A stretch of DNA of 64,000 bases from Naegleria gruberi (Eukaryota). Both the position numbers and the translations under genes were made by a program. This document shows, one piece after another, positions 3,082 to 55,721 of this stretch. The stretch's first letter is position 1. Every line of letters starts with the position of its first letter. Location of the stretch: the NCBI GenBank assembly GCA_000004985.1, contig GG738856.1. The stretch is one strand, 5' to 3'. A model generated the notes under the pieces. It searched no databases and had not been told where the DNA came from. It worked only from the letters and a program-made list of their open reading frames with translations.

Positions 3082-6000
3082 TTACATCATCAATACAGCA
3101 ACCAAGGCCAAAATGAGCATCAAAGCGTTAACAGCAACATTAGAACTTGCATTAACTTTGGTACTCTTCACTGGAGTTACAGTTGAAGGTTTTGGAGTTG
3201 TTGAAGAGCCTGGTGTAACAGTGGTTTGAGAAGTAATGATATAAGTACCAGTGCTTGAAACAGAAGCAGTGATAGTACCGTCGTTGTTCGTAGTTAAGGT
3301 GCATCCAGAGGCAGTTTCATACGTGTTAGTAACAGTATTGAGTACCTTACATGTGTTGACAGTTTCCATCAAAGTTCTTGATTTCTTTGTGAGTTCAAAG
3401 ACCAAATCAGCAATAGAAGAAGAATTAGAAACAGTGACAGCAGTTCCATCAACCAACTTGAAATCAATAGCCTTAGTAATAGTATTATCAACACCAGTAA
3501 CATCAATAACTTTAGCCATAACATTGACAGTCTTGAGAGAAGCAATTTGACTCAATTGAGCAAACTTGGAAGATAACTTGATCTTATTGTTACCAAGAAT
3601 CTTTTCAGAGAGGGAGTTCAAGGTAGCAATGTTAACCTTACGAGTAAGAGTTGTTACACCACCAGCATTAACAATGGTAGATGGCAAGTCAGCAATAGTG
3701 TCCTTAACAGACAAAGTTGCCAAATTGGTATAAACAGTGTTAATGTTTGCAAGGTCAACCTTACTGAAAACTCTCTTTCTTTGTTGACCTTTTTGAATAA
3801 CTTCAAGGAATTTGTCAGCAGATTTCTTTACATTGTCAATCATTTCACTTCCAAGTTCGATGCCGTTAGTGTTAACATTTCCTGTAGTATTTGCGAGACT
3901 GTCAACAACCTTGGCTGTAGTACTATCAGCAACCATTCCAGAAGAAACAGAAGTACTGAATGATGAAGCAAAAGACAGACCATTTTCAGCAGAGCTCTTG
4001 GAAACAGAAATACTATCAGTTTTGGCTTGTTGGTCTAGGAAGGCATCTGCAATAGCAGAAGCAGCTTGCTTGATAGAATCAATTTGTGAAGAGTTCAACT
4101 TGTTAATATCAACACTACCAATAACAGACATGGCAGATGAAGCAGCAGACAATGTGACAGTACCCTTAGAGGTGGCCATTGAAGACAAGGCAGAAACAGA
4201 TTCTTCAGCAGATGGCTTGGTAATAGTAACATCAAAAGTAGCATATGAAGAAGCACCCAAAAAGTCGTACACAACAGCCTTAACAGTCAAAATATTACCA
4301 GATGTTGGTGCTGGGAGTGAGATACTTGCGGATGGTTCTTCAGTTCTGTCAGTAAGAGGGTTCCACTTGTTACCCTTGTTATCGTAGAACATGAATTGAT
4401 AAGTCAATGGTGTTTGAGGATCAGACCAACCATTACCACACTTGATATCGAAAATATCGCTCAAAGCTTTACCAGTGATTGGATAGACATCGAATTGACC
4501 TTGAGTTGGTGGAGAGTTGACAGTGAATGTAACCTTAGCAGAACCTTCCTTGACACCATCAGTGACAGCCAAAGAAACAGTATATGAGTCACCTGGAGAA
4601 AGCAAGCTGGATGGAATCTTCAAATAGCTTGAAGTGGTGGAGGTATTAGTGTTGAGTTCAAAGTTTTCAGCAGACCAAGTAAATGATGGGCTTGATAATT
4701 GAACACCCCATGTAGTATAGGTCAAATACAAGTCCTTAGATGGATCAACAACAGTCAAGTCAACATTTGAAGTAATTGAAACTTTGAGAAGAGTATCCTT
4801 TGCTTGCTCAAGGAGAGTAACAAACAAGTAACGAGTAGCACCTCTTGATCCCTTAGTTACAGTTGCAGTGAATTGGTATGCTCCAGCAGTGAATTGAGTG
4901 CTTGTGAATGAAGAAACATATCCAGGTTGAATGGTACAGTCTTGGCCATTAGTCAAATCATAACAAGTGATGGATACATTTTGGGCATCATTGGTATTAC
5001 TTGGATCAACAACCTTAATATTAAATGAAATTGGATCTTGATTAGATTGAATAACATTGTCAATGGAATAGGAGAGGATCAATGGTTGAGCAATAGCAGT
5101 TACCTTGATTGAGGTTGAGGATGATTCTGCTCCATTAGCTGTGGCAGTGACTGTAAAGTAGTAATCACCTTCTTGATTAATTTCAGTAAATCCCTTACCA
5201 AGGACCAGCATTCCATTCTTTGTTTTTGGTGTAACAATGGATGCAGATTGAGAAGCATCTAAAGTATAACTGTATTGAACTTGACCATTTCCGTTGTAAC
5301 AGGATGGGAATTTGATAATTGGATTAATAGTTGAAACAGAACCAATCATAAACTTGCTTTCAGCACCTTGCTTAATGAACACAGCTGGAACAGCATTGGC
5401 AATAACTGTGAAAGAGAAGGACTTGGTATCCGATTTACCGAAACTACTGGTGACAGTAACAGAAACAATGTAAGTACCAGCAGACAAACCGAGCTCGTTC
5501 AATTTGATTCTCAATCCACCTCGAGTTTCACTCTTGATAGCAGTTGAGAGCTTATCTTCATCTGAACTTGATGGTCCCGAAGCAACAGACCAGGAGAAAG
5601 TTAATGGACGACGATCCAAAGAAACTGAACCATAAGCATTCAAGAACAAATCATCGCATGTTGAAACAACGCTCTTGTCACCAATCAAGGAAACAGTTGG
5701 TGAAGCAGCAATGAATTCACCACTTTGAACTTCTGCATTAGTAGCTTCCTTACTACCTGGATATTTCAATGGTCTAAGAACATCTGAGGTAGTAACAGCA
5801 GCATTAGGTCCCAAAATTACTTCCAAAGTGCTCTTGTCAGTATTGAAAACACATTGAGATCTATCACCAAGCTTTAAAACATCTTGGAAGATTTGATCAC
5901 ATGGAATTGGTCTCTTGAGGGTGGAGTAAACAGTTGCAACAAGTCTGTCACCGTTGGCATTGAACTTGAGAGAGGATGTATCAAATTTATAGTCACAATT

Positions 6001-7864
6001 ATCACCAGCATATTGGTTGAGACAAACACCTGGAGCACATTTAGCAGCTGGGTCAACATTTGGACTATTACAAGTGCAAGAGCCATCATAGGTACAAGTT
6101 CCTCTACCATTGCAAGTGGATGGGTTACAAGAAATTGAACAATTTGCACCAACAAATCCACCAATACACTTTTCACAATATTCACCAGCATAATTTCCAT
6201 CACATTTACATTTCAAACCTTGACATTTACCCTTGCCACCACAAGTACCAGCATCTGTACACACTGGTTCTTTACAATCATCTCCCTTAAATGCAGGACT
6301 ACAACTAGAACAATTACGAGAACCAGTCCAAGCAGAATCACATTGACAAGTATCTGGACCAACACACTTACCGTGTTGAGAACAAGCATATTGACTATTT
6401 CTATCAACACCATGGCATGAGAATGATTGACAAGATGATCCTTCGAAACCAGCCAAGCATTTACAAGCATTTGGACCTTGGCATGAACCCTTACCATTAC
6501 ATACTGATCTATCAGTAGCTGGAGTATTGTAACATATTGGAATTTCACAATTTGCACCAGTGTATCCAGCAATACACTTCAAACAGTAGGTGCTAGGATC
6601 AAAATTACCTCTACATTGACAAACGTCGACATCAGTACATTTACCATTGAAGGAACAACCACCAGCTTGTTCAGTCTTACCATTACAAGTTTTGATATCG
6701 CATTCAATTCCTGAATAACCAGCTTTACAATTACAAGTATTTGGAGCAACACATTTACCTTTGCCACCACAAACTTGAGCCTCATCTTGAGGTTTACCGA
6801 AACAAGTTGNNNNNNNNNNNNNNNNNNNNNNNNNNNNNNNNNNNNNNNNNNNNNNNNNNCAGTTCCATTCACACAGCACCATTCTTACATTGAATATTAG
6901 CACATGGATCAACTGGACCTGGTGGAGGATTTGGATTGCTTCCATTATTATTAGTATTATTATTACCTGGATTTGGATTAGGTGTTGGACTACTTCCATT
7001 ATTATTATTATTATTAGGATTTGGATTTGGGTTGCTTCCATTGTTGTTGGTGTTATTATTACCTGGATTTGGATTAACAACTTGATCACAATGAGGACCA
7101 GTGAAACCTTGTTGACATTCACATGTTCCATTCACACAAGTACCATTACCACAGTGAATATTAGCACATGGATCAACTGGACCTGGTGGAGGATTTGGAT
7201 TGCTTCCATTGTTATTAGTATTATTATTACCTGGATTAGGATTAGGTGTTGGACTACTTTCATTATTGTTATTAGTATTATTATTAGGATTTGGATTTGG
7301 ATTAGGGTTAGGATTTGGGTTGCTTCCATTGTTATTGGTATTATTATTACCTGGATTTGGATTAACAACTTGATCACAATGAGGACCAGTGAAACCTTGT
7401 TGGCATTCACATGTTCCATTCACACAAGTACCATTACCACATTGAACATTGGCACATGGATCAACTGGACCTGGTGGAGGATTTGGATTACTGTTGTTAT
7501 TATTTCCAAGAACTACTTCACAATGAACACCATCAAAACCTTGATTACATTCGCACATACCAGAGGTCATGTTACAAACACCATGACCGCAATCAGAATT
7601 ATTAGAGCACAAAGGTGCACAGAGAGTATCATTATAATAGTAGCTAAGACTTCCATCGCAGCCACATGTGCCATTAAGACACACCAAATTTACACCATTC
7701 ATAGTTTGATTGAGTACATTATCATAGAAAGGATAATTACACTCAGAATCATTTTGGCACCCTTTCACTACAAAGCCATTAAGCAACAGCAGTGTAGAAA
7801 ACAGGGACACCAAAGCAAATACAAAAGTTAGCCTTGTTGTCTGCATATTTTTTCTTGAGGTCAT
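3082..7864 (-). CDS. Giant secreted/surface glycoprotein with EGF-like repeats, N/P-rich linkers, a Ser/Thr-rich region and a hydrophobic C-terminus; interrupted by an assembly gap
   Basis: A signal peptide (MTSRKNMQTTRLTFVFALVSLFSTLLLLNG) sits at 7864. Repeated CANIQCGNGTCVNGTCECQQGFTGPHC EGF modules follow. After the gap there are more EGF/tenascin-type Cys repeats, then about 1000 aa of S/T-rich beta-rich sequence, ending in ...NVAVNALMLILALVAVLMM (TM or GPI signal). The two ORF-track pieces differ in frame because the gap length is unknown. Confidence 0.6.
6810..6859. other. Assembly gap (50 N)
   Basis: A run of N lies inside the EGF-repeat gene. Confidence 0.95.
6861..7500. repeat. ~243-bp tandem repeat (about 2.6 copies) encoding EGF module + GNNNTNNNGSNPNP linker
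   Basis: Near-identical blocks start near 6890, 7133 and 7375 (ccattcacacaagtaccattaccaca...ggatttggattgcttccatt). The array abuts the N-gap. Confidence 0.7.
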
Positions 7865-12718: not shown

Positions 12719-12789
12719 TGCGTCGACCGGGAATTGAACCCGGGTCACGGCGATGGCAACGCCGTATTCTACCACTAAACCATCGACGC
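12719..12789 (-). tRNA. tRNA-Gly (anticodon GCC)
   Basis: Reverse complement: GCGTCGATGGTTTAGTGGTAGAATACGGCGTTGCCATCGCCGTGACCCGGGTTCAATTCCCGGTCGACGCA. The anticodon stem CGGCG/CGCCG encloses loop TTGCCAT. Confidence 0.85.
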
Positions 12790-18225: not shown

Positions 18226-19577
18226 TACCTTTCGAATATTCATTTTAGAAATTATTTAAAAAAAATAATCAAATACGAATCACCATTCGCCTCCAATTCC
18301 ACCAATTCCACAATATTCTCTGATGATATTTGTTATGAAATTCTATCCTATTTCCATGAGGAAAATGATGGAAAATTTATTCTACTAAATTGTTCGTTAA
18401 TTTGCAAGCAGTGGATGATGAGTGTGAAGAAATTCGGAAAGATTTCAATTAATATTAGAAATAGACTTTCGGATTCATTGATAGAAACAATCAAGAGAAA
18501 TCAATTTTTGGACTGTTTTGTGAAATTTGGAATTTATTCGAAAGATTTTGTAAAGTTTCATGAAATAATTACAATGATGAAGAATTTAAAAAGTCTTTGT
18601 ATTGGAAATGATTCTATTGGAGAGGAGGATTTAAAATTTATTGGAGAAATGAATCATTTAACTGAACTTGAATTGTGTGAATGTTTGACCGGAGATAAAG
18701 ATATTAGACCAATTAGTAGAATGTCTCAATTGACTAGATTAAATATTAGTAAGAATGTAAAGTATCATTTAAGCGATATCATTGAATTGAAGCAATTAAA
18801 AATACTAGAAATTGGAGAAAATTTCATAGGAGATGAACAAGTTGAACTACTTTCCAATCAATTGAAACAATTGACCATTTTACGAATTAATAATAACTTG
18901 ATTCATTCGCAAGGGGCTGAACATTTGAGTAAATCGGATCAATTGACTGAATTAGATTTAAGTGGAAATGCTTTAAATTATACAATTGGCTATGAAATTG
19001 CAAAAATTGAACAATTGAAAACTCTTCACCTTAGCAAACTTTCAATATATCAAATGGGATCAAGACGTCCAGTTGGATCAAGATTGAGTTCACAATTTGG
19101 ACAATTATTTCAATTGACCAGTCTTAGTATAAGTAATACTAATATTGGAGATGAGGGAGCCAAAGAAATTAGTAATTTAACACAATTGACTGAACTATAT
19201 GTACATGGAGCTGGAATTGGAAATACAGGAGCCAGATCATTAAGTGTTTTACATCAATTGGCCAAACTAGATATCAGTACTAATCAAATTGGAGATGAGG
19301 GAGTTAGATTATTCAAACAATTATCAAAATTAACAGAACTTGTTGTGTTTAATAATAGAATAGGAGATGTTGGAGCACAACTAATAAGTGAAATTCCTCA
19401 ATTGACCAATCTTGATGTTAATAACAATCAAATTGGAAATGAAGGGGCAAAATCAATGGAAATCAAATTGATGATCAAGGAGCTAAATTATTATGTGAAA
19501 TGAATCAAAGAAAAATTGAACTTTATGGAAATAATATTAGTAATGATTTCAATTATTTAATTGAATTATTGAGCTGA
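18226..19577 (+). CDS. F-box-like + RI-type LRR protein, apparently disrupted (no in-frame ATG ahead of the F-box; +1 frameshift near 19455)
   Basis: The frame opens at 18226 with IFSDDICYEILSYFHEENDGKFILLNCSLICKQW, but the first ATG is at 18412. The LRR units run to ...NNNQIGNEGAKS. The sequence then continues only in the +1 frame as NGNQIDDQGAKLLCEMNQRKIELYGNNISNDFNYLIELLS (stop 19575-19577). Confidence 0.5.
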
Positions 19578-20814: not shown

Positions 20815-20887
20815 GAGACTGTAGCTCAGATGGGAGAGTATTCGTTAACCCAACGAATGGTCTTAGGTTCAAATCCTAACTGTTTCT
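20815..20887 (+). tRNA. tRNA-like element with atypical anticodon loop (possible pseudo-tRNA)
   Basis: The D-arm is GCTC-AGATGGGA-GAGT and the T-arm is TTAGG-TTCAAAT-CCTAA. The acceptor GAGACTG/CTGTTTC has one mismatch. The anticodon stem TTCGT/ACGAA encloses loop TAACCCA, which has A at position 33 and no standard anticodon assignment. Confidence 0.35.
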
Positions 20888-20888
20888 C

Positions 20889-21268: not shown

Positions 21269-21341
21269 GCTGGCGTAGCTCAGCCGGTAGAGCGTTGGTC
21301 TAATAAGCCATTGGTCGCCGGTTCAATCCCGTCCGTCAGCA
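21269..21341 (+). tRNA. tRNA-Ile (anticodon AAT)
   Basis: GCTGGCG-TA-GCTC-AGCCGGTA-GAGC-G-TTGGT-CTAATAA-GCCAT-TGGTC-GCCGG-TTCAATC-CCGTC-CGTCAGC-A. There is one U:U at 27:43 and one C:U in the T-stem. Confidence 0.75.
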
Positions 21342-26474: not shown

Positions 26475-26546
26475 GGGACCATGGTCTAGTGGTATGATTC
26501 TCGCTTTGGGTGCGAGAGGCCGTGGGTTCGATTCCCACTGGTCCCC
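26475..26546 (+). tRNA. tRNA-Pro (anticodon TGG)
   Basis: GGGACCA...CTCGC-TTTGGGT-GCGAG...GTGGG-TTCGATT-CCCAC-TGGTCCC-C. It closely resembles canonical eukaryotic tRNA-Pro. Confidence 0.85.
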
Positions 26547-29121: not shown

Positions 29122-31149
29122 TTACCACTTCTTTTTGGGAACTCTCTTTTCAATGACATTTCTGAAAAATGTTTTTTGAGATCTGAGCAATAATTTCAAA
29201 TTTAACAAGACTGAAATGGCTCCAGATTTGGAAATATTAGATCCATCCACAGTAAATGATTGTAATTCTTGCATGAATTGACTAGTTGCAATGTATCCAA
29301 TTCCTTCATCAGTTATTTGATTGATTTTATAACATCTGAGACTTGTCAAAACGCATCCAATTTGTGAAATTAATTTCAATGAAGTATCGGTGAGAGATGT
29401 GTTTTCTGAAAGTGATAATGCAATTAAATTGACTGGTTGGGAAGAAGCCAAATATTGAATTCCTTCATCTGTTATTTGATTATTAGATAAATGTAAGATT
29501 TTCAATTTGGTAGTCAATGCAGATGATTCGAATCCTTTCATTCCCTTATCTCCAATTTTGTTATTGCTAACATTCAATGATGTCAAATTAACTAAATACG
29601 GACTAGTTAAAATTTCAATAAAATCCTGATCATTCAAATTGCAAAATGAAATATTCAACCGAGTCAAATTTAAAAATGCTGGATTTCTTGTAATTGAGGT
29701 GATTCTTCCATTTAGGTCCATATTATTTTCTTGAGAATACCAAGTAAAAAGTTCTCCTAAACCTAATTGTTTCAAATTGTGAAGGTATGGACTCTCAATG
29801 ACATCCTTTATCAATTCGAAATTACAGGAGAAACAAATACTTGTTAAATTTGACATGGTTGGTTGCGGAATTAATTTAGAGCTCATATCTGGCAATCTAA
29901 CGTACAATCTGTTCCTCTTGGTGAGATTGGTTAACTTGAGGAATGGGCTTTCGAATAGAATATTTAAATTCAATGAGATCCATTCAGCAGTTGGATACAC
30001 CTCCAAATAGGTCAGAGATGCAAAAGTTGGACAATTAGCAATATATCCCAAACATTCATCGTCCAAATTGTTATGACACAGATCCAGTACTTTCAAATTA
30101 GTTAAATAACAAGGCTTCTCAGTGAGAATTTTGAGTTTCTCTGAACCTATTCCAGAACATCCCACATTTAAAATTTCCAAATTACCCAAATATGGACTTG
30201 CAAATATTTGCGCATTTACTCCATTATCATATAAATTCAATATTCTCAATTTTGAAAATACTGGACTATTTGCAATGTGTAAAGATCCTTCCACAGAGAT
30301 ACAATTAAATTGCAAGTTTAAATTTGTTAAATTTGACAAATGTGTGCTCGTGGATAAATGTCTAAGGCCTTCATCTCCGATATAGTTATGCTGCAGATTG
30401 AGTGTTGTTAAATTCCTCATTTCAATATTATTCGAAAGCTCTATTGCGAATGCATTTCCAATATCACAATATCTCAAATTCAAACTTTTCAAATTTTTTA
30501 AATAGGGGCTTTTTACCAATTTCTGATAAGATTCGTCATTTGTTCTATACTCCATCATGAACGCACGTCTAGGACGATTACTAGATGCATTTGTGGAATT
30601 GTACAAATTGAGTTCTGTTAAATTTTTGAAATTTTCACTTTCTGTTAAAACTTCAAAACTTTCCTTTCCCAAATTATTAAATCTCAAATTCAAACTTTTC
30701 AAATTCTTGATAAATTCACTCTTTGAAAGAGCATTAATTCCTTCAAAATTAATTCCATTACTTCTCAAATTCAAATGTTGCAATTGACCAAAATCGGCAC
30801 AATTTGCAAGTAATTTCACTCCCTTATTTCCAATATAATTGAACGAAACATTCAAACTAGTAATATTCCTTCTCCAATTCACTTCAAAATCATCTTCCAT
30901 TGTCTCTGTGAATTCTTCATCATTGGCATTCGAATTGAAAAATAAATTCAACTTGTGTGGATGAATTTTGTGAATAGAAAAATCAAGATTCAATGCAAAT
31001 CTACTTGCTGCTTGTCTCCAATCCTTGGAAACAAGTGAAAATCGTTTGATAATTTGCAAATGATCAATAAATGTCATGATGTGAAAAATCATGTCCAGTG
31101 GAAGAATCACTGTTTGGTCAACAATATTCGGAGGAGGATTCATTTGCAT
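29122..31149 (-). CDS. F-box-like + RI-type LRR protein (675 aa)
   Basis: The N-terminus HIMTFIDHLQIIKRFSLVSKDWRQAASRF is followed by more than 15 LRR units of the form NLRxNxIGxEGxxxLS. Confidence 0.7.
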   Translation of the reverse strand: MQMNPPPNIVDQTVILPLDMIFHIMTFIDHLQIIKRFSLVSKDWRQAASRFALNLDFSIHKIHPHKLNLFFNSNANDEEFTETMEDDFEVNWRRNITSLNVSFNYIGNKGVKLLANCADFGQLQHLNLRSNGINFEGINALSKSEFIKNLKSLNLRFNNLGKESFEVLTESENFKNLTELNLYNSTNASSNRPRRAFMMEYRTNDESYQKLVKSPYLKNLKSLNLRYCDIGNAFAIELSNNIEMRNLTTLNLQHNYIGDEGLRHLSTSTHLSNLTNLNLQFNCISVEGSLHIANSPVFSKLRILNLYDNGVNAQIFASPYLGNLEILNVGCSGIGSEKLKILTEKPCYLTNLKVLDLCHNNLDDECLGYIANCPTFASLTYLEVYPTAEWISLNLNILFESPFLKLTNLTKRNRLYVRLPDMSSKLIPQPTMSNLTSICFSCNFELIKDVIESPYLHNLKQLGLGELFTWYSQENNMDLNGRITSITRNPAFLNLTRLNISFCNLNDQDFIEILTSPYLVNLTSLNVSNNKIGDKGMKGFESSALTTKLKILHLSNNQITDEGIQYLASSQPVNLIALSLSENTSLTDTSLKLISQIGCVLTSLRCYKINQITDEGIGYIATSQFMQELQSFTVDGSNISKSGAISVLLNLKLLLRSQKTFFRNVIEKRVPKKKW

Positions 31150-36650: not shown

Positions 36651-36731
36651 CGCGGTCTACAGGATTCGAACCTGTGCGGGTCGCCCCAATTGATTTCTAG
36701 TCAATCACCTTAACCACTCGGTCAAGACCGC
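36651..36731 (-). tRNA. tRNA-Ser (anticodon AGA), long variable arm
   Basis: Reverse complement: GCGGTCTTGACCGAGTGGTTAAGGTGATTGACTAGAAATCAATTGGGGCGACCCGCACAGGTTCGAATCCTGTAGACCGCG. The anticodon stem ATTGA/TCAAT encloses loop CTAGAAA. Confidence 0.85.
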
Positions 36732-40556: not shown

Positions 40557-41126
40557 ATGCTCGAAAGATACTTGAAATCCCTGCTGACAGGAAGCAAATT
40601 CAATCTACCAACAACCTTCTCTCAACTTTTCCGATCCCCTCATTTCGAAACCATGATGGGCATGGGTAATTTAGATTATGCTCATCCGGAGGTGAAACGA
40701 ATTCTTCGTCATCACTCTCACGATCCAAAGACTTTCTTTGTATTCGAGCCTCCAATCGATGTCAGAGAACACGAGAAGAAATTCATCATTCATGCAGATG
40801 TTCCAGGCTTTCACAAGAATAATATTTCAGTGACGGTCACTGATGAAGAAAGAGGAGAAATTTGTATTAAGGGAAATTTAGTAGATTTAGAGGAAAAACA
40901 AATGAAAGAGGAGGAACAAGTTTTTGGAAAGTATCTCATACAGGAAAGAGTTTTAGTTCCAGAATTTGAAAGGAAAGTAGTCTTGCATAATCCATCAGAA
41001 ATTGATTGGGATAATATTAATGCTTCCATTGCTCATGGTCAACTCAATATTGATATTCCAAAGAAGGATGTTCCTTCCAAACCACCAAAGGAATCAAAAA
41101 TTATTCCAATCTCTGAAGAACCTTAA
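40557..41126 (+). CDS. Small heat-shock protein (Hsp20 / alpha-crystallin domain)
   Basis: The 189-aa ORF carries the motifs DVREHEKKFIIHADVPGFHKNNISVTV, FERKVVLHNPSEIDWDNINASIAHGQLNIDIPKK. Confidence 0.8.
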   Translation: MLERYLKSLLTGSKFNLPTTFSQLFRSPHFETMMGMGNLDYAHPEVKRILRHHSHDPKTFFVFEPPIDVREHEKKFIIHADVPGFHKNNISVTVTDEERGEICIKGNLVDLEEKQMKEEEQVFGKYLIQERVLVPEFERKVVLHNPSEIDWDNINASIAHGQLNIDIPKKDVPSKPPKESKIIPISEEP

Positions 41127-41577
41127 TTAAAAGTATGTGTAAATATATTTAAGAAACTTTGTTTGATAGGTAACATAATAGGTTTGTGAAGTTGGCTGAA
41201 CCAAGTTCATTGTTCTCTCATTTTTCATCTTTGAAAAAAACGAACTAAAATTTATTGTGGTTTTTTGTTGTTTAATATTGGATAGTGGACAACGAATTTT
41301 GATTTTCCTTGTAATTGTTGTGTTTGATTGGAAAACAAAAACGATAATAGGAGTTAATAGCGCACCTGTGTTGGATTTTTTGGTGCTTTTGATTCTTCTG
41401 TGATCATATTCGGATAAGAGGAAAATTATCATCATCAATTATTTAATTTAATTTATTATTATTAAAATCTTAGAGTCGACTTGTAAAATTGTAGAATAAC
41501 GACATTATCAAACACCTGTACTACTAGTTTAATTTATTATTATTATTGTAAAATACCTTTAAAAATCTTCACGAATA

Positions 41578-42736
41578 ATGGATCAATATTAGTAAGTACA
41601 AGACATGATGATTGTGGATTTAATCAATGATGCGGATATTCAAACAACAGTATCATTAAAATCTTGGGAAGAGGTTCTGAAGGTAAGTGGCTTGGTGAAA
41701 TGTTCATGTCACTAATCAATCAATAGGACAAGTATTGTTAGCAGAACACAAGAAAACTCATGAAGAAGTTGCCATCAAGCGTATGGAATGGGCTTCTTTC
41801 GACGATGCTAACCTTCATTTAAACGAAGCTCAAAAGTTGCGAGATTTAAATCACAAGAATATTATGAAATACCTCAAGGTATTCTTGAACAAGTATAGTA
41901 CAGACACTCACTTTGTTTGTCTGTGTATAGAGTACTGCCCTGGAGGAGATTTACAACAATTCATTTCGAGTACATGCAAGAAGGGAAAAATAGCAGAGAA
42001 GGATATTCTCAGCTATGCAGAACAAATAGCAGCAGGTCTTCAATATTTACACGAGCACAATATTATTCACAGAGATTTGAAACCTCAGAATATTTTAATT
42101 GCTGCAGGTAGGTCACAAACATTTTCAATTGATTTTACAAATATTATAAGATGGTACACTTAAAATTGGAGATTTTGGAATTAGTAGACAATTGGGAACT
42201 CAATCTATGGCCAATACTCAATGTGGTACTATTCAATATATGAGCTATGAAATGCTTAACATGGCACCTTATGATCAAGCAACTGACATGTACTCATTTG
42301 GAGTGTAAGTTGATTTTAAAAAGCTCATATATTTTTCTAACTATTATGGTCAACCATTTCATTGGATAGAATTCTTCTTCAAATGATTACTGGAAAGCAA
42401 ATGATGATTCCTATGGAACTGAGAAAGAATCCAAACTTTCTCGTTGAATTGGAACATCAATGTGTCAAGACATTGGGCTACTCTCAGGAATTATTTGCCC
42501 TAGCCAAAAATTTAGTGAGCTATGATCCAAGAGAACGGCCAACGGCAGAGAAGGTTCTCAAATCCCTGACAAAAATCAGATCGAGCGACAAGCATGGAAA
42601 TTTGAAATTGGTATTTAAGGATTTTAACCAATTATCTGACGTTTTAAAAATTAGAGTATTTTCCTTTTTACAAATTGAAGACATGTATCATGTAGGTCTA
42701 TCATGTAGACAATATTATTGGTTATGGGAACAACAT
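41578..42736 (+). CDS. Ser/Thr protein kinase with C-terminal F-box-like motif; 5 exons
   Basis: Exons lie at 41578-41591, 41651-41682, 41727-42107, 42151-42304 and 42370-42736. The introns are 59, 44, 43 and 65 nt, all GT..AG. The spliced product reads MDQYYIIKILGRGSEGQVLLAEHKKTHEEVAIKRM...[25 protein letters not shown]...DMYSFGVILLQMITGK...LSDVLKIRVFSFLQIEDMYHVGLSCRQYYWLWEQH. Confidence 0.7.
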
Positions 42737-42887
42737 GTAAGTTTTTTTCAATTCCTAACCTCCTCATCAATTCATATTTTTTTGCATGTATTCAATTCAA
42801 TATTTCCTTTAACTTTTTACCAAATTGGTAATAACTTGAATGCATACAACATTTACATTCAATTTTACATAGTGGTGGAGCCAATTT

Positions 42888-44076
42888 ATGAATACCAAAG
42901 CAGGAGAGGAGATTTTAAAGAATTCTTCCTCAATCTATTCCAAACCAACTCCAAGAAAACGAGCTGGGAGCGCCAACAATAATCACAGACCTGGTAGTGA
43001 GCTATCTCTAGAATCAATGACCACCAGTGCTGAGAAAGTTTCTTCTCCCCTATCCACATCACTCCCAACCACACAAACAGAAAAGAATATTTTCAAACAA
43101 CAAGCATTCAACTATGTCAAAATCCAAAAACCTAAAAAGAGACGTGACATGAATAAGAGAGGTAAAAGTGTTGTCAGTGAAATACATCCATCACAAGTCC
43201 AAGAAGCAGCTACCTTCCTCATGAATTGTTTCAAATCTCCAAACTTTAACAAGTATTCCTCCACTAACGATGCTGAAAATACAGCTCCAATTACATCTTC
43301 CAATTATGAATCAGGCCAAACATCCAAAACGTCCGAGCAAAGCAAACGAGACAGTGGCATTACTGCTGAAACCTCTACCACATCCACACTGATGGAAACT
43401 AACGAATTGCACCCACTCTTGAGTTACATTTTCAAAACTGGGATTATGGAAGATGTATCGGATGAAGCTCTTCTGTTCCTCTGTACCATGATCGTCAAGT
43501 ACGGTATCAAATATGGTAGGATTTATGTCAGTACACACTATCCACTCAATAATGAATCAAAGGAGATTCAAGCCATTTCCATATGGCAACATCCATTCAA
43601 CTCAAAGGGAGTAGATTTGTGGAAATTAGTAAGACTGGGTATTGGGAAGGCTCCCAAAGCTCTGTAAGTATTTTTTTATGTAATGCTCATATTTGATTCA
43701 TCATTATGATGATGGTTGTTGTTTGCTATTTAGTGGTTTCAAAGGTCTATATCGAGTCAACAAGGCTGCCAAAGCATTAGAAATGGTACATGGTAAGCTT
43801 CTTCCCCAAAACGATAAACCACATTGGACTCTTCTAAGTTTGGTTGTCAAACCAGAATTGAGACGCAGGGGCCTTGGCTCTGAAGTTATTCTACCAATCA
43901 TTAGATTATCAGATGAAGCAACACTCCCCATCTATACATTTGTTTATCACTACGAGTCCAAAACAAAAGAAAATAAGCTCATCAATTTCCTTAAAAGGCA
44001 AGGTTTTGATGTTCGTGAAAACATTGCTCCAGCAAACGGCCCTCCTTTTACAGTTCTGATAAGGTATGGCAATTAA
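42888..44076 (+). CDS. GNAT-like acetyltransferase-domain protein (2 exons); may instead be the 3' part of the kinase gene
   Basis: Exon 42888-43663, a 70-nt intron (43664-43733, GTAAGT...TTTAG), then exon 43734-44076. The C-terminus LSLVVKPELRRRGLGSEVILPII resembles GNAT motif A. A 136-nt canonical intron (42737-42872) would splice the kinase in-frame to 42873 onward. Confidence 0.45.
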
Positions 44077-44606
44077 TAAAACAAAATTGTCAAATTCCAT
44101 CTCAAGAGCATGAATTGACAAACATAGAACAGCTCAACAGGAAATTAGCACTGCTTAAAATCCACTACCACCATTTTGAGTGCTGTAAATTGTTTGAACA
44201 TTTTTGAACTCAGTTGTGGCCTCAAATTGTCAGATTCATTTCCTCGCAAAATATTGTGCATATTATTAAGATGCATAACTCTAACACCTCAGCTTGTCTA
44301 TTAATAATTATTTCACTGGATTGATCAACAATACGCAATATATTCAAAATGGTCTTGATAAAGTGGAAGCTCTTCTCCACACGCATGATCAAAAAGGTTT
44401 TCCCTTATTCATGCTCGATTTGTGGGATCCTCACACTTAATAAAACCACCAGAAAAAAAACCCAATCACAGCCACCATCATCCTCTCTCTCCGTTTTTCC
44501 TTAAAAAATTACCGCAAAGAAGAGTTTGATTTTTCCAATTTACACCACCAACAAGCCTCATTATCCTCCTCTTCAATTATAATAATCTAAATACAACAAC
44601 AACATC

Positions 44607-45011
44607 ATGCCTAATAATAATAGTATATCGAACGTACCAATCTTGGACTCACAATTAGTCAGTAAGGTAAAGCTGGAATTGAAAATGAAGGAGGAAACAA
44701 TTAAGGAATTAAGAAATCAATTGAAATATTATCAGGAAACACAATGTTCTGCCTGTTTAGCCAATAGATCCTATCACGCCCCTCCTTCGGATGATGAGCA
44801 TGACGAAGATGAACATGATCAACATCATTTGGAGAATTATACAATTACTAAAACAACCACGGAACCAGGGGTTGTCTATAACACTGAAGCACACAATATG
44901 GGTCTTAAGAACGATTGGCTTGCACCAGCAACAACAGGAAGAAGACAATCCATACAATTGAATAACATATATGAAAGTGAAATTCAAGATTTAATTGCAA
45001 AGAAGAAATAG
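44607..45011 (+). CDS. Hypothetical small coiled-coil protein
   Basis: The 134-aa ORF starts at ATG. No family is recognised. Confidence 0.35.
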   Translation: MPNNNSISNVPILDSQLVSKVKLELKMKEETIKELRNQLKYYQETQCSACLANRSYHAPPSDDEHDEDEHDQHHLENYTITKTTTEPGVVYNTEAHNMGLKNDWLAPATTGRRQSIQLNNIYESEIQDLIAKKK

Positions 45012-50427: not shown

Positions 50428-50500
50428 TCCCCCTTAGCTCAGTCGGTAGAGCGTCAGACTGTTAATCTGCAGGTCGGTGGTTCGAGCCCACCAGGGGGAG
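50428..50500 (+). tRNA. tRNA-Asn (anticodon GTT)
   Basis: TCCCCCT-TA-GCTC-AGTCGGTA-GAGC-G-TCAGA-CTGTTAA-TCTGC-AGGTC-GGTGG-TTCGAGC-CCACC-AGGGGGA-G. There is a U:C at 27:43. Confidence 0.8.
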
Positions 50501-50556: not shown

Positions 50557-51675
50557 ATGGGAACAAAGCCATCACGTACCTTGATGCCAATACGAACCAT
50601 CATTCAACAGAAATTAACTAAAAAAGTTCTATTACTCGGTACCTCCGATTCTGGTAAATCCACATTATTCCACATGTTGCAATTGATAACTTTCGGCCAT
50701 AAAGTTGATGAAAAGTTTGAAAATAATTTGCGAATTGTTTGCTCATGGGTTGTTGAGCGAATTTGGGAAGTGATGGGAGAGCAAGACCGAAATCACTTGA
50801 AAGATCTCATCAACCCAGAACTGAGATTAGTGTTCGAAACTGCACGAAATACTTGTTTAGCTACTGAATTGCAAAATAGAGATTGTTGTGAAATATTGGT
50901 CAATCTTTGGAAAATTCCATTCTTTAGAGAGTTTTACGAATCAGTGTGGAGTAGAGATGGAATCACAATGTACGAAAATGTCAAGGAATTAGTTTCAAGA
51001 ATTGAAAACAGGAAAATCTTTTCTCCATATTCATTAATTCATTGTAGGACGGCTGGAATGTCGACAGACGAACCAATCAGAAACAACATTGAACTGATCG
51101 ATGTTGGAGGACAGAGAAAAGAAAGAAGGAAATGGATTTATTGCTTTGAAGATGTTCATACAGTGATTTATATGGTTTCTCTTTCAGAATTTAATCAATT
51201 TTTATTTGAAGATAACATTACTAATAGAATGGAAGAATCACTATCCTTATTTAGTGAGGTTATGAATTCGAGATGGCTTGGTCCTGCTCGTAACATAATT
51301 CTCTTTGTAAAACCAGATGTTCTATGGAAAAAATTGGAAAATGGAGTGAAATATGATAGAGAACTCAATACTAATATTATAGCAGAGCTAGACAGAATTC
51401 CTGATCAGTATCTTAAACTGGTTATCAACTCGATCATTTCAGAATATTTCAAGAAAATAGATAGAACTACAATTGATTCCTATCATATTGTGAATACAAT
51501 CTCAGAAGAGGATATCAAATCTGTTTGTGAAATAATCTTTGGAGAGAGAATAGATCAAAAAACAACCTTCATCTCACCATGTATCATTCCTGACAACAAT
51601 AGAATGATACGGTGCCTCTTCAATAATTATCTGAATGAAAAATTGACAGATATACAAATCATTACTTCCGACTGA
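50557..51675 (+). CDS. Heterotrimeric G-protein alpha subunit (divergent)
   Basis: MGTKPS (Gly2) at the N-terminus. The P-loop is VLLLGTSDSGKST. ...IHCRTAGMSTDE...IDVGGQRKERRKWIYCFEDVHTVIYMVSLSEFNQ...NRMEESLSLFSEVMNSRWLGPARNIILFVKPD aligns with G-alpha DVGGQRSERKKWIHCFE...NRMHES..LF...IILFLNKKD. Confidence 0.75.
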   Translation: MGTKPSRTLMPIRTIIQQKLTKKVLLLGTSDSGKSTLFHMLQLITFGHKVDEKFENNLRIVCSWVVERIWEVMGEQDRNHLKDLINPELRLVFETARNTCLATELQNRDCCEILVNLWKIPFFREFYESVWSRDGITMYENVKELVSRIENRKIFSPYSLIHCRTAGMSTDEPIRNNIELIDVGGQRKERRKWIYCFEDVHTVIYMVSLSEFNQFLFEDNITNRMEESLSLFSEVMNSRWLGPARNIILFVKPDVLWKKLENGVKYDRELNTNIIAELDRIPDQYLKLVINSIISEYFKKIDRTTIDSYHIVNTISEEDIKSVCEIIFGERIDQKTTFISPCIIPDNNRMIRCLFNNYLNEKLTDIQIITSD

Positions 51676-53915: not shown

Positions 53916-55721
53916 ATGAAGAGACCTCTAAATATTGCAGCTTGTTCTGGAGTAACTGGTGACAATCCGAATGCAATTTATGATCAAGCAGTTGGTGATC
54001 ATCCAATCGATGTCATTATTGGTGATTATTTGGCTGAGGTTAATATTGCATGGCATGCATTGGCTAGAAAAACAGATCCATCCAAAGGATACGATGAGGG
54101 TTTCGTTGAGAATTTGAAACCAGCATTGCCAGTTTTAAAGGAGAAAGGTATCAAGGTTGTTGTGAATGCTGGGGCCTTGAATCCTTCAGGTTTAGTCCAA
54201 GAATTGAGAAAGGTCTTGAATGAGCAAAAGATTGAAATGAATATTGCTTGGATTGAAGGTGATGACATTGTAAGAAAGATTCCTGAATTAATTGAAACTG
54301 GAAATGAGTTTATTCACTTGGATAATCCAAATGTCAAGTTATCCGAATGGAGATGCACTCCAATTTCTGCAAATGCTTATTTGGGTGCTTGGGGAATTGC
54401 CAAAGCATTGAATGAAGGAGCAGACATTGTCATTTGTCCAAGAGTTACTGATGCTTCACTTGTGGTTGGATGTGGTATTTGGTGGCATGATTGGAAAAAA
54501 GATCAATTTGACATTTTGGCAGGTGCTGTCATGACAGGACATTTAATTGAATGCAGTGCTTATATTACAGGAGGAAATTATGCAGGTTTTAGAAATGTCA
54601 AGAATAATGTCGATTTACCATTTCCAATTGTTGAACTAGCTCATGATGGCAGTTGTGTCATTACAAAACATTCAAACACAAATGGTGAAATCTCACTTGG
54701 AACTGTCACTACCCAATTCCTATATGAAATTCAAGGACCTATCTATTTAAACCCTGATGTAACCTGTCATCTCAGTACTGCTCAAATTACAGAAATTGCT
54801 CCTGACAGAGTTGCATTGACAGGTATTAAGGGAAGTGCTCCATCCAAGCAAACTAAAGTTGCCATCTGTGGAATTGGTGGCTATCAAGTTGAATTCTCTG
54901 TTTACATGACAAGTCCAAACGTCCAAGAAAAGGAAGATCATTTCAGAAAGCAAATGATGAGGATGGTCAACCCAGAAAAATTCCTAGTTCTTGATGTGAC
55001 CAGATATGGAGGACAAGTTCAAGATCCAAAATCTCAAGCAGAGGCAACTTGTCAAATTCGTGTTTTTGCTCAAGCTATTGATGCCGAAACAGTTTCGTTT
55101 AAGAATTTCACTGGACGAATCTTGTCAACTGGAATGCAAGGATTTGGAGGTTTCCACTTGAATATGGATTTCAGAACTGCTCAACCAAAACCTTTCATTG
55201 AATATTATCCAGCACTTCTTGATGTATCCTCTCTAGAACACACAGTTTTTGTAAACGACAAGGAATTCATTGTAAACGATTTGGAAATTCCAAGACAAGA
55301 AATTTCCTGCTCAGTCAACCAACTTCCAACTCTCGAATTTGACCCTTCTAAATATCCAGAAACAATCAGGGCTCCACTAGGAAGAGTAGCCCTTGCTCGT
55401 TCTGGAGATAAAGGAGGAAACATGAATGTTGGAATCTATGTCCTTCATGACCAAGCATGGCCATGGCTTAAATCCTTCCTCAACGAGGAAACTTTTAGAA
55501 AATTGCTTGGAAATGATAATTCTCCCGACTATATTATCGAAAGATGTGAATTTGAAAATTTGAGAGCTGTTCACTTTAAAGTGATTGGAATTTTGGGAAA
55601 GGGAGTTTCAAGTACTGCAAGAATGGATTCATTCGCCAAATCTTGGGGTGAGTTTTTGAGAGCTCGACATGTGGACATTCCATTGGAAATTTATGAAAAT
55701 TGCAGTGTAGATTTATTGTAA
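53916..55721 (+). CDS. AtuA-like protein (DUF1446 N-terminal domain; acyclic-terpene-utilisation AtuA family)
   Basis: The 601-aa N-terminus NIAACSGVTGDNPNAIYDQAVGDHPIDVIIGDYLAEVNIAWHALARKTDPSKGYDEGFVENLKPALPVLKEKGIKVVVNAGALNP matches the family signature (SGFWGDRP...YLVGDYLAE...KDP..GY...GIKVVSNAGG.NP). Confidence 0.55.
   Translation: MKRPLNIAACSGVTGDNPNAIYDQAVGDHPIDVIIGDYLAEVNIAWHALARKTDPSKGYDEGFVENLKPALPVLKEKGIKVVVNAGALNPSGLVQELRKVLNEQKIEMNIAWIEGDDIVRKIPELIETGNEFIHLDNPNVKLSEWRCTPISANAYLGAWGIAKALNEGADIVICPRVTDASLVVGCGIWWHDWKKDQFDILAGAVMTGHLIECSAYITGGNYAGFRNVKNNVDLPFPIVELAHDGSCVITKHSNTNGEISLGTVTTQFLYEIQGPIYLNPDVTCHLSTAQITEIAPDRVALTGIKGSAPSKQTKVAICGIGGYQVEFSVYMTSPNVQEKEDHFRKQMMRMVNPEKFLVLDVTRYGGQVQDPKSQAEATCQIRVFAQAIDAETVSFKNFTGRILSTGMQGFGGFHLNMDFRTAQPKPFIEYYPALLDVSSLEHTVFVNDKEFIVNDLEIPRQEISCSVNQLPTLEFDPSKYPETIRAPLGRVALARSGDKGGNMNVGIYVLHDQAWPWLKSFLNEETFRKLLGNDNSPDYIIERCEFENLRAVHFKVIGILGKGVSSTARMDSFAKSWGEFLRARHVDIPLEIYENCSVDLL

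Follow-up and report, generated by a model that had tools for sequence, protein, structure and literature searches.

Evidence for a single Naegleria gruberi gene joining a protein kinase, a putative F-box and a GNAT-fold domain

Does the DNA at positions 41578-44076 (+) of the stretch examined here, 64,000 nucleotides (nt) of Naegleria gruberi contig GG738856.1 (assembly GCA_000004985.1; the whole stretch is called the window for simplicity), hold one gene or two? A preliminary description had proposed a Ser/Thr kinase gene of five exons with an F-box-like motif after the catalytic domain, possibly joined in frame by removal of a 136-nt intron to a GNAT-like domain, and had named as the alternative two genes separated by less than 150 bp. 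Our analysis indicates that the locus is almost certainly one seven-exon gene encoding a protein of 693 amino acids (aa), in which the fifth intron is genuine and no intergenic gap exists.

One gene or two at the fifth intron

Positions 41000-45000 were translated in all frames, and seven exons on the + strand could be joined in frame to a coding sequence of 2082 nt (693 codons, zero internal stops) that starts with the ATG at 41578 and ends with the TAA at 44074-44076. Exon 1 (41578-41591) comprises only 14 nt, encoding MDQY plus 2 nt. It is followed by exon 2 (41651-41682) with the glycine-rich loop (GRGSEG), exon 3 (41727-42107) with the kinase N-lobe through the catalytic loop (VAIK at 41768-41779, HRDLKPQN at 42068-42091), exon 4 (42151-42304) with the DFG motif (42171-42179) and the activation segment, and exon 5 (42370-42736) with the kinase C-lobe and most of the F-box segment. 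Intron 5 (42737-42872, 136 nt, phase 0, GTAAGT...CATAG, 25% GC) precedes exon 6 (42873-43663), which contains the end of the F-box segment, a linker and the GNAT-fold domain from strand 1 through a helical insert. After intron 6 (43664-43733, 70 nt, phase 2), exon 7 (43734-44076) covers the rest of the protein from GNAT strand 4 onward. Both ends of the coding sequence and the 136-nt intron (GTAAGT...TTTTACATAG) lie exactly where the preliminary description had placed them, the peptides quoted there are present (LSDVLKIRVFSFLQIEDMYHVGLSCRQYYWLWEQ as residues 282-315, WWSQFMNTKAGEE after the intron-5 acceptor and LVVKPELRRRGLGSEVI in the last exon), and the in-frame assembly bears out its assignment of five exons to the kinase and F-box part.

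Splice donors are GTAAGT or GTAGGT in all introns and acceptors are YAG/AAG; the GC content is 23-26% in introns 3 to 6 and 34-40% in exons 2 to 7. At the protein level, the N-terminus MDQYYIIKILGRGSEG is identical in the window protein and in the annotated Naegleria fowleri protein P0010, and the C-terminus GPPFTVLIRYG is conserved in the family alignment. An AATAAA at 44075-44080 (+) overlaps the stop codon and is the sole such hexamer within 42700-44300. A scan of 41000-45000 against Rfam, intron 5 included, yielded zero matches, and the complementary strand of the gene contains no competing open reading frame (ORF) of at least 80 aa.

Evidence for the splicing of intron 5 came from other species. 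A homology search with the downstream part gave four ORF fragments on environmental or Logan contigs, and these contigs were then compared as loci labeled with L numbers, of which L001/L002 are identical to N. fowleri. In L001/L002, L003 and L005, the ORFs for kinase, F-box, linker and C-terminal part are collinear on one strand, GTAAGT stands right after the codon aligned to His316 of the window protein and AG right before the WW codons. A phase-0 intron is hence located at the identical site (between ...LWE[EQ]H and WW..F...) in N. fowleri, L003 and L005. Its length varies, with 136 nt in the window, 81 nt in N. fowleri, 37 nt in L003 and 89 nt in L005; the lengths 81, 37, 89 and 136 leave 0, 1, 2 and 1 upon division by three, and in each case the frame is restored only by removal of the intron. 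An intron at the place of intron 6 is likewise found in L001, L003 and L004.

Other relatives carry no intron at this junction. In L004, which is devoid of intron 5, a single ORF of 358 aa (P0003) connects the kinase C-lobe, the F-box and the GNAT region (...FFKIWEEEWFKNFVTSTSIGKEI...). The F-box/GNAT junction is likewise crossed without interruption by P0018, a complete ORF of 626 aa located on a genomic contig of 31.7 kb; P0016, an uninterrupted ORF of 748 aa on a genomic contig of 35 kb, is without only the first ~17 kinase residues. In P0015 (720 aa, 41% identical), from a more distant relative, the three domains are complete. All contigs on which this protein was found measure 2-5 kb. Several of them have a poly(A) end ~25 nt after AATAAA, while some begin with sequencing-adapter remnants. 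The poly(A) ends and adapter remnants indicate that the P0015 contigs are derived from mRNA and that all three domains are present on one message.

These data were used to weigh the alternative of two adjacent genes, according to which a kinase/F-box gene would end shortly after 42736 and a GNAT gene would begin with the ATG at 42888. This ATG is present, and if intron 5 is retained in the window, the kinase frame stays open for 81 more codons and reaches a stop near 42983, giving 397 aa. Since the window frame happens to stay open through the intron, the alternative could not be dismissed on the sequence of the window alone. Yet the Met at 42888 is a Thr in L005 and P0011 and a Val in L004, unlike the WW..F residues upstream of it, which are conserved as protein. 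The 81 additional codons are unconserved, and retention of the intron in N. fowleri, L003 and L005 leads to stops within or just after the intron. Neither AATAAA nor ATTAAA occurs in intron 5 (42737-42872). Together with introns of four lengths that always restore the frame, the intron-free junctions of L004, P0016 and P0018 and the single polyadenylated messages of a relative, these observations make two genes extremely improbable, and this half of the preliminary description is effectively excluded by the comparative data. The in-frame splice to a GNAT-like domain, in turn, gains support from the conserved intron site, the intron-free relatives, the full-length orthologues and the poly(A) transcripts.

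A regulated retention of intron 5 was considered as well. It would generate two isoforms, namely the protein with all three domains and a kinase/F-box form of 397 aa with an unrelated tail. Intron 5 is indeed the longest of the gene (136 nt versus 43-70 nt for the others), and N. gruberi alone has no in-frame stop in it. However, an open frame that is not shared by N. fowleri, L003 and L005 speaks against such a regulated isoform, which we regard as very unlikely. In the following, the single gene with a spliced intron 5 is taken as the basis.

Kinase, linker and GNAT-fold domain

The Ser/Thr protein kinase domain comprises residues 1-262 (41578-42574 including introns, +). Residues 6-259 align with positions 3-260 of the 263 positions of the Pkinase profile PF00069 with 207.4 bits (cutoff 31.7, E 3.3e-61). 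The window protein has K33 of VAIK, E49 of helix C, H130-R131-D132, N137 and D150 of DFG, and neither these residues nor the H130-N137 segment (HRDLKPxN) vary among 12 family members. With the catalytic residues complete, the earlier label of a Ser/Thr kinase is fully borne out. The kinase relatives in the PDB (NEK1, MARK, MAP4K4, AMPK and CDPK) score about equally, all with E ~1e-30, so that the domain cannot be assigned to a named subfamily and is a Ser/Thr kinase of generic type.

The exon structure around the catalytic loop differs between species. In N. fowleri, a micro-exon of 10 nt (ATCGAGATTT, positions 5144-5153 of L001) is placed between two introns and codes for part of the catalytic-loop H-R-D-L, whereas the same region of the window is one continuous exon. 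The catalytic loop of L003 is apparently split as well; an exact-pattern search found no micro-exon there.

The kinase/F-box part and the GNAT-fold domain are joined by a disordered, low-complexity linker. In the family alignment, an R-x-R-x-G-S-[AT] motif (RKRAGSA, residues 344-350, 42954-42974, +) is kept in nine of the ten members having this linker, with surrounding sequence that is unalignable; we infer that it is a candidate phosphorylation site. Directly before the GNAT-fold domain, conservation and the predicted structure point to a basic helix (43080-43169, +) containing KPKKRR (43128-43145). Residues 386-437 are 81% identical between the window protein and the N. fowleri protein, and the model contains a predicted helix 3-25 in the basic region. 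The basic helix resembles a nuclear localization signal and may thus play a role in localization.

The C-terminal domain spans residues 416-693 (43170-44073 including intron 6, +). A conserved segment located far upstream in exon 6 (VVSEIHPSQVQEAATFL) corresponds to strand 1 and helix 1 in the model, from which it follows that the domain is split by an insertion and extends over residues 416-693. The insertion is disordered, comprises ~63 residues (43236-43424) and lies between helices 1 and 2; in addition, there is a helical insert between strands 3 and 4. The order of secondary structure elements is that of the GNAT fold (b1-a1-a2-b2-b3-b4-a3-b5-a4-b6). An acetyl-CoA motif R/Q-x-x-G-x-G/A follows strand 4 (RRRGLGS, residues 623-629, 43861-43881, +), and its core G-x-G/A is kept in nine of the ten members covering it in the alignment. 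Motif B reads FLKRQGF (43987-44007, +). Acetyltransf_1 (PF00583), the profile by which the preliminary description had proposed to check its GNAT label, was matched marginally: the downstream part alone reached 21.2 bits and thereby passed the cutoff of 20.7, while the full protein stayed below it with 20.1 bits. The family profile matches puromycin N-acetyltransferase (PAC) with E 2e-9 and NAA50 with E 1.7e-7. Fold, acetyl-CoA motif and family-profile matches confirm the label, and the domain belongs to the puromycin-N-acetyltransferase-like GNAT subfamily. PAC itself (PDB 7k09) is a small standalone bacterial enzyme with an antibiotic as substrate, whereas the GNAT of the window forms the C-terminus of a 693-aa eukaryotic protein, carries the ~63-residue disordered insertion and has a Leu in place of the motif-B Tyr.

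Relatives, database entries and neighboring genes

The orthologue from N. fowleri (FDP41_001909, XP_044563552.1, UniProt A0A6A5C0Y0, 708 aa) is 69% identical at 100% coverage and shows no indel at the junction; identity to the window protein amounts to 85% in the kinase, 71% in the F-box and 69% in the GNAT core. The N. fowleri sequence is deposited under two GenBank accessions (KAF0978839.1 and CAG4711796.1). The protein C9374_009323 of Naegleria lovaniensis (XP_044544674.1, 710 aa) falls into the same 90%-identity cluster as the N. fowleri protein. Both orthologues share the order kinase, F-box, linker and GNAT with the window protein, and the intron-5 site is common to N. fowleri, which differs by two extra introns in the catalytic loop and by a canonical Leu-Pro in the F-box. 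They have been deposited as hypothetical protein or non-specific Ser/Thr kinase. Using the full model as query, we found a paralogue in N. lovaniensis (P0011, C9374_001058, 800 aa), a truncated model from Willaertia magna and, among environmental sequences, proteins 626-864 aa in length that share the domain order. L005 and P0011 represent a second, more divergent paralogue in the N. fowleri/N. lovaniensis clade with the same intron site. When local synteny was compared with N. fowleri and L003, the gene itself matched and the neighboring genes did not.

An exact-sequence look-up in a collection of 15 billion sequences retrieved none of the possible products of the locus (fused, read-through, separate downstream and 259-aa ORF products). 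Non-exhaustive homology searches likewise returned no N. gruberi entry for the locus, although neighboring N. gruberi proteins do appear and four other long ORFs of the window are exact matches to N. gruberi D2V8D0, D2V8D3, D2V8D8 and D2V8E2. The word-indexed protein search missed, with a 372-aa downstream query, the 708-aa N. fowleri orthologue, which shares an uninterrupted identical run of 28 residues with it, and negatives from this search are not to be read as absence. We suspect that the product of the locus is missing from the N. gruberi reference proteome. Within the library searched, the literature describes neither a protein with kinase, F-box and GNAT nor the orthologue accessions.

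An exhaustive profile search with the C-terminal region revealed 3383 relatives, mostly standalone proteins of ~205 aa. Outside the family, the closest relatives with several domains come from dictyostelids, four species of which have a protein combining U-box and GNAT, namely Heterostelium album (PPL_06137), Acytostelium subglobosum, Tieghemostelium lacteum (DLAC_06282) and Cavenderia fasciculata (DFA_06050) (P0056, P0061, P0107 and P0150). As in the window protein, a GNAT of the same subfamily (profile E 6e-32) is placed C-terminal to a ubiquitin-ligase module. In contrast to the window protein, this module is a U-box, which recruits the E2 directly, instead of an F-box, a kinase is absent and the species belong to another eukaryotic supergroup. 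The dictyostelid proteins are uncharacterized, as is the Naegleria family. P0045 and P0062 are F-box + GNAT ORFs without an intact kinase domain. A GNAT of the same subfamily is also found at the C-terminus of P0085 and P0163 (~1230 aa), which contain CLU, eIF3_p135 and SPRY domains.

Among characterized proteins, KDM2A/KDM2B (JmjC demethylases) likewise combine an F-box with an enzyme domain in one chain, and their F-boxes match the family profile; FBH1/FBXO18, a helicase, also unites an F-box and a catalytic domain. FBH1 and KDM2A/KDM2B differ from the window protein in the type of enzyme. In the bacterial AAC(6')-Ie/APH(2'')-Ia, one chain unites a GNAT acetyltransferase with a phosphotransferase of kinase fold, but this protein acts on aminoglycosides, its kinase fold is not that of a protein kinase, and it contains no F-box, has the reversed domain order and is of unrelated descent. 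To our knowledge, which includes the literature searches, no F-box protein with both a protein kinase and a GNAT is known.

Genes are dense in the window, whose GC content is 29-40%, and tRNA genes are interspersed, in keeping with its origin from N. gruberi, a free-living amoeba of the Heterolobosea. Just upstream of the kinase gene lies an HSP20 gene (40557-41126, +) with an ATG-initiated ORF of 189 aa versus 157 aa in database entry D2V8D0, which indicates that D2V8D0 was annotated with another start or structure than that of the simple ORF. Seven tRNA genes (Thr, Gly twice, Ile, Pro, Ser and Asn; one tRNA-Gly with anticodon ACC) are situated between protein-coding genes at 1310-1383, 12719-12789, 20815-20888, 21269-21341, 26475-26546, 36651-36731 and 50428-50500. 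A single-exon ORF of 1349 aa (3085-7131, -) resembles polycystin-1 and the sperm receptor for egg jelly, with a REJ domain (E 6.5e-46) in addition to EGF-like repeats; its exact sequence is absent from the protein collection. The ORFs at 53916-55718 (+), 50557-51672 (+), 18415-19500 (+) and 29125-31149 (-) code for an AtuA-family protein (acyclic terpene utilization, E 2.5e-157, D2V8D8), a G-protein alpha subunit and two leucine-rich-repeat proteins.

The F-box segment and a possible ubiquitin-ligase receptor

The F-box segment comprises approximately residues 282-322 (42632-42890, +), and its final residues are encoded beyond intron 5. In the family, PF00646 is matched by 11 of 12 members (best E 8.8e-8) and PF12937 by 10 of 12 (best E 1.7e-8), and more distant members exceed the Pfam cutoffs for F-boxes (P0045 with 37.6 bits, P0062 with 33.7 bits and P0059 with 29.4 bits). 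A profile of the segment searched against the PDB hit F-box proteins only, with Skp2 at 1.8e-4, followed by Fbxw7, GID2, KDM2A/B, FBXL2/3, beta-TrCP and Cdc4. The hydrophobic pattern is conserved across members that are ~40% identical, and within the segment L33, D37 and W57 do not vary. As modeled by AlphaFold for the N. fowleri orthologue, the three F-box helices comprise residues 285-293, 297-306 and 308-325 with pLDDT values of 70-81.

Based on the domain composition, we tentatively propose that the protein serves an SCF (Skp1-Cul1-Rbx1) ubiquitin ligase as an F-box receptor equipped with two enzyme domains, a proposal to which we give somewhat less than an even chance. The F-box would dock on Skp1. 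In F-box proteins, the F-box is usually N-terminal to the domain that recognizes the target. As the GNAT-fold domain occupies this position C-terminal to the F-box, it is proposed to bind the target, and it may acetylate it or, alternatively, sense acetyl-CoA. The N-terminal kinase might phosphorylate the same target to prime it, the ligase, or the RxRxGS site in its own linker. The occurrence of U-box + GNAT proteins in dictyostelids and of F-box + GNAT proteins here means that one GNAT subfamily became joined to two ligase modules in two distant amoeba groups, which forms our chief argument for a functional F-box and for the GNAT-fold domain as the working end of the proposed ligase. Taken as a whole, the one-gene model with its domain order and the proposed SCF function is, with good confidence, the best overall explanation of the data.

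Several points weigh against this interpretation. The F-box of the window itself scores 15.6-15.7 bits with PF12937 (E 0.013) and does not reach the cutoff of 24.3, so that the F-box label of the preliminary description holds at the level of the family while the window's own match falls short. The canonical Leu-Pro of the F-box is Leu-Ser in the window and variable across the family; given the sub-cutoff score and the Leu-Ser, binding of Skp1 is putative. A kinase N-terminal to the F-box is an unusual layout among F-box proteins. The Tyr of motif B, the general acid in many GNATs and present in PAC and in environmental members, is a Leu in the window and N. fowleri (and a Phe in the U-box fusions), and in view of this difference the GNAT-fold domain may bind rather than catalyze. 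The predicted structures are those of the N. fowleri orthologue and not of the window protein, the splicing of intron 5 in N. gruberi itself is inferred from conservation, and nothing in the analysis points to a substrate.

Some of these points would suit a scenario in which the fusion is real and the F-box has degenerated into a helical spacer no longer able to bind Skp1, leaving a bifunctional kinase/acetyltransferase without a link to ubiquitination. The window score below the Pfam threshold, the Pro of Leu-Pro missing in most members and the atypical placement of the kinase before the F-box agree with it. On the other hand, a spacer is hard to reconcile with a hydrophobic pattern and invariant residues retained at ~40% identity, with distant members that pass the Pfam cutoffs, with PDB matches that are exclusively F-box proteins and with the independent joining of the same GNAT subfamily to a U-box. 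We therefore regard a degenerate F-box as rather unlikely.

The change in motif B bears on a further alternative, in which the fusion and the docking to the SCF are real and the GNAT-fold domain is a pseudo-enzyme used as a recognition or acetyl-CoA-sensing module, comparable to the pseudo-acetyltransferase domain of O-GlcNAcase. This alternative is possible, if somewhat doubtful: the R/Q-x-x-G-x-G/A acetyl-CoA motif is retained in nearly all members, the motif-B Tyr is kept in environmental members, and many GNATs are active without this Tyr. Because of the exchange of Tyr for Leu, we rate the chances within the SCF interpretation as about even that the domain is non-catalytic and serves for recognition or acetyl-CoA sensing. 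Catalytic activity of the domain in Naegleria is about evenly balanced.

Returning to the SCF receptor, one may go a step further and envisage a receptor that writes its own marks: the kinase would phosphorylate the target, the GNAT-fold domain would acetylate it or gate the ligase according to the acetyl-CoA level, and the F-box would hand the target over to the SCF. Heterolobosea (F-box) and Dictyostelia (U-box) would each have evolved the pairing of GNAT and ligase module on their own. In this full form the idea is speculative and probably goes too far. If true, it would constitute a so far undescribed coupling of acetylation and ubiquitination in amoeboid protists.

What is new is the F-box protein's unusual combination of two enzyme domains, which is moderately surprising, since all three domains are of familiar types and protists often show lineage-specific domain shuffling. 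The analysis settles the gene model at the N. gruberi locus and defines a conserved, uncharacterized three-domain family of Heterolobosea that includes a member from the lethal pathogen N. fowleri, the brain-eating amoeba. The family joins phosphorylation, acetylation and ubiquitination systems in one chain, and the independent dictyostelid fusion of U-box and GNAT turns a functional connection of this GNAT subfamily with ubiquitin ligases into a concrete idea that can be tested.

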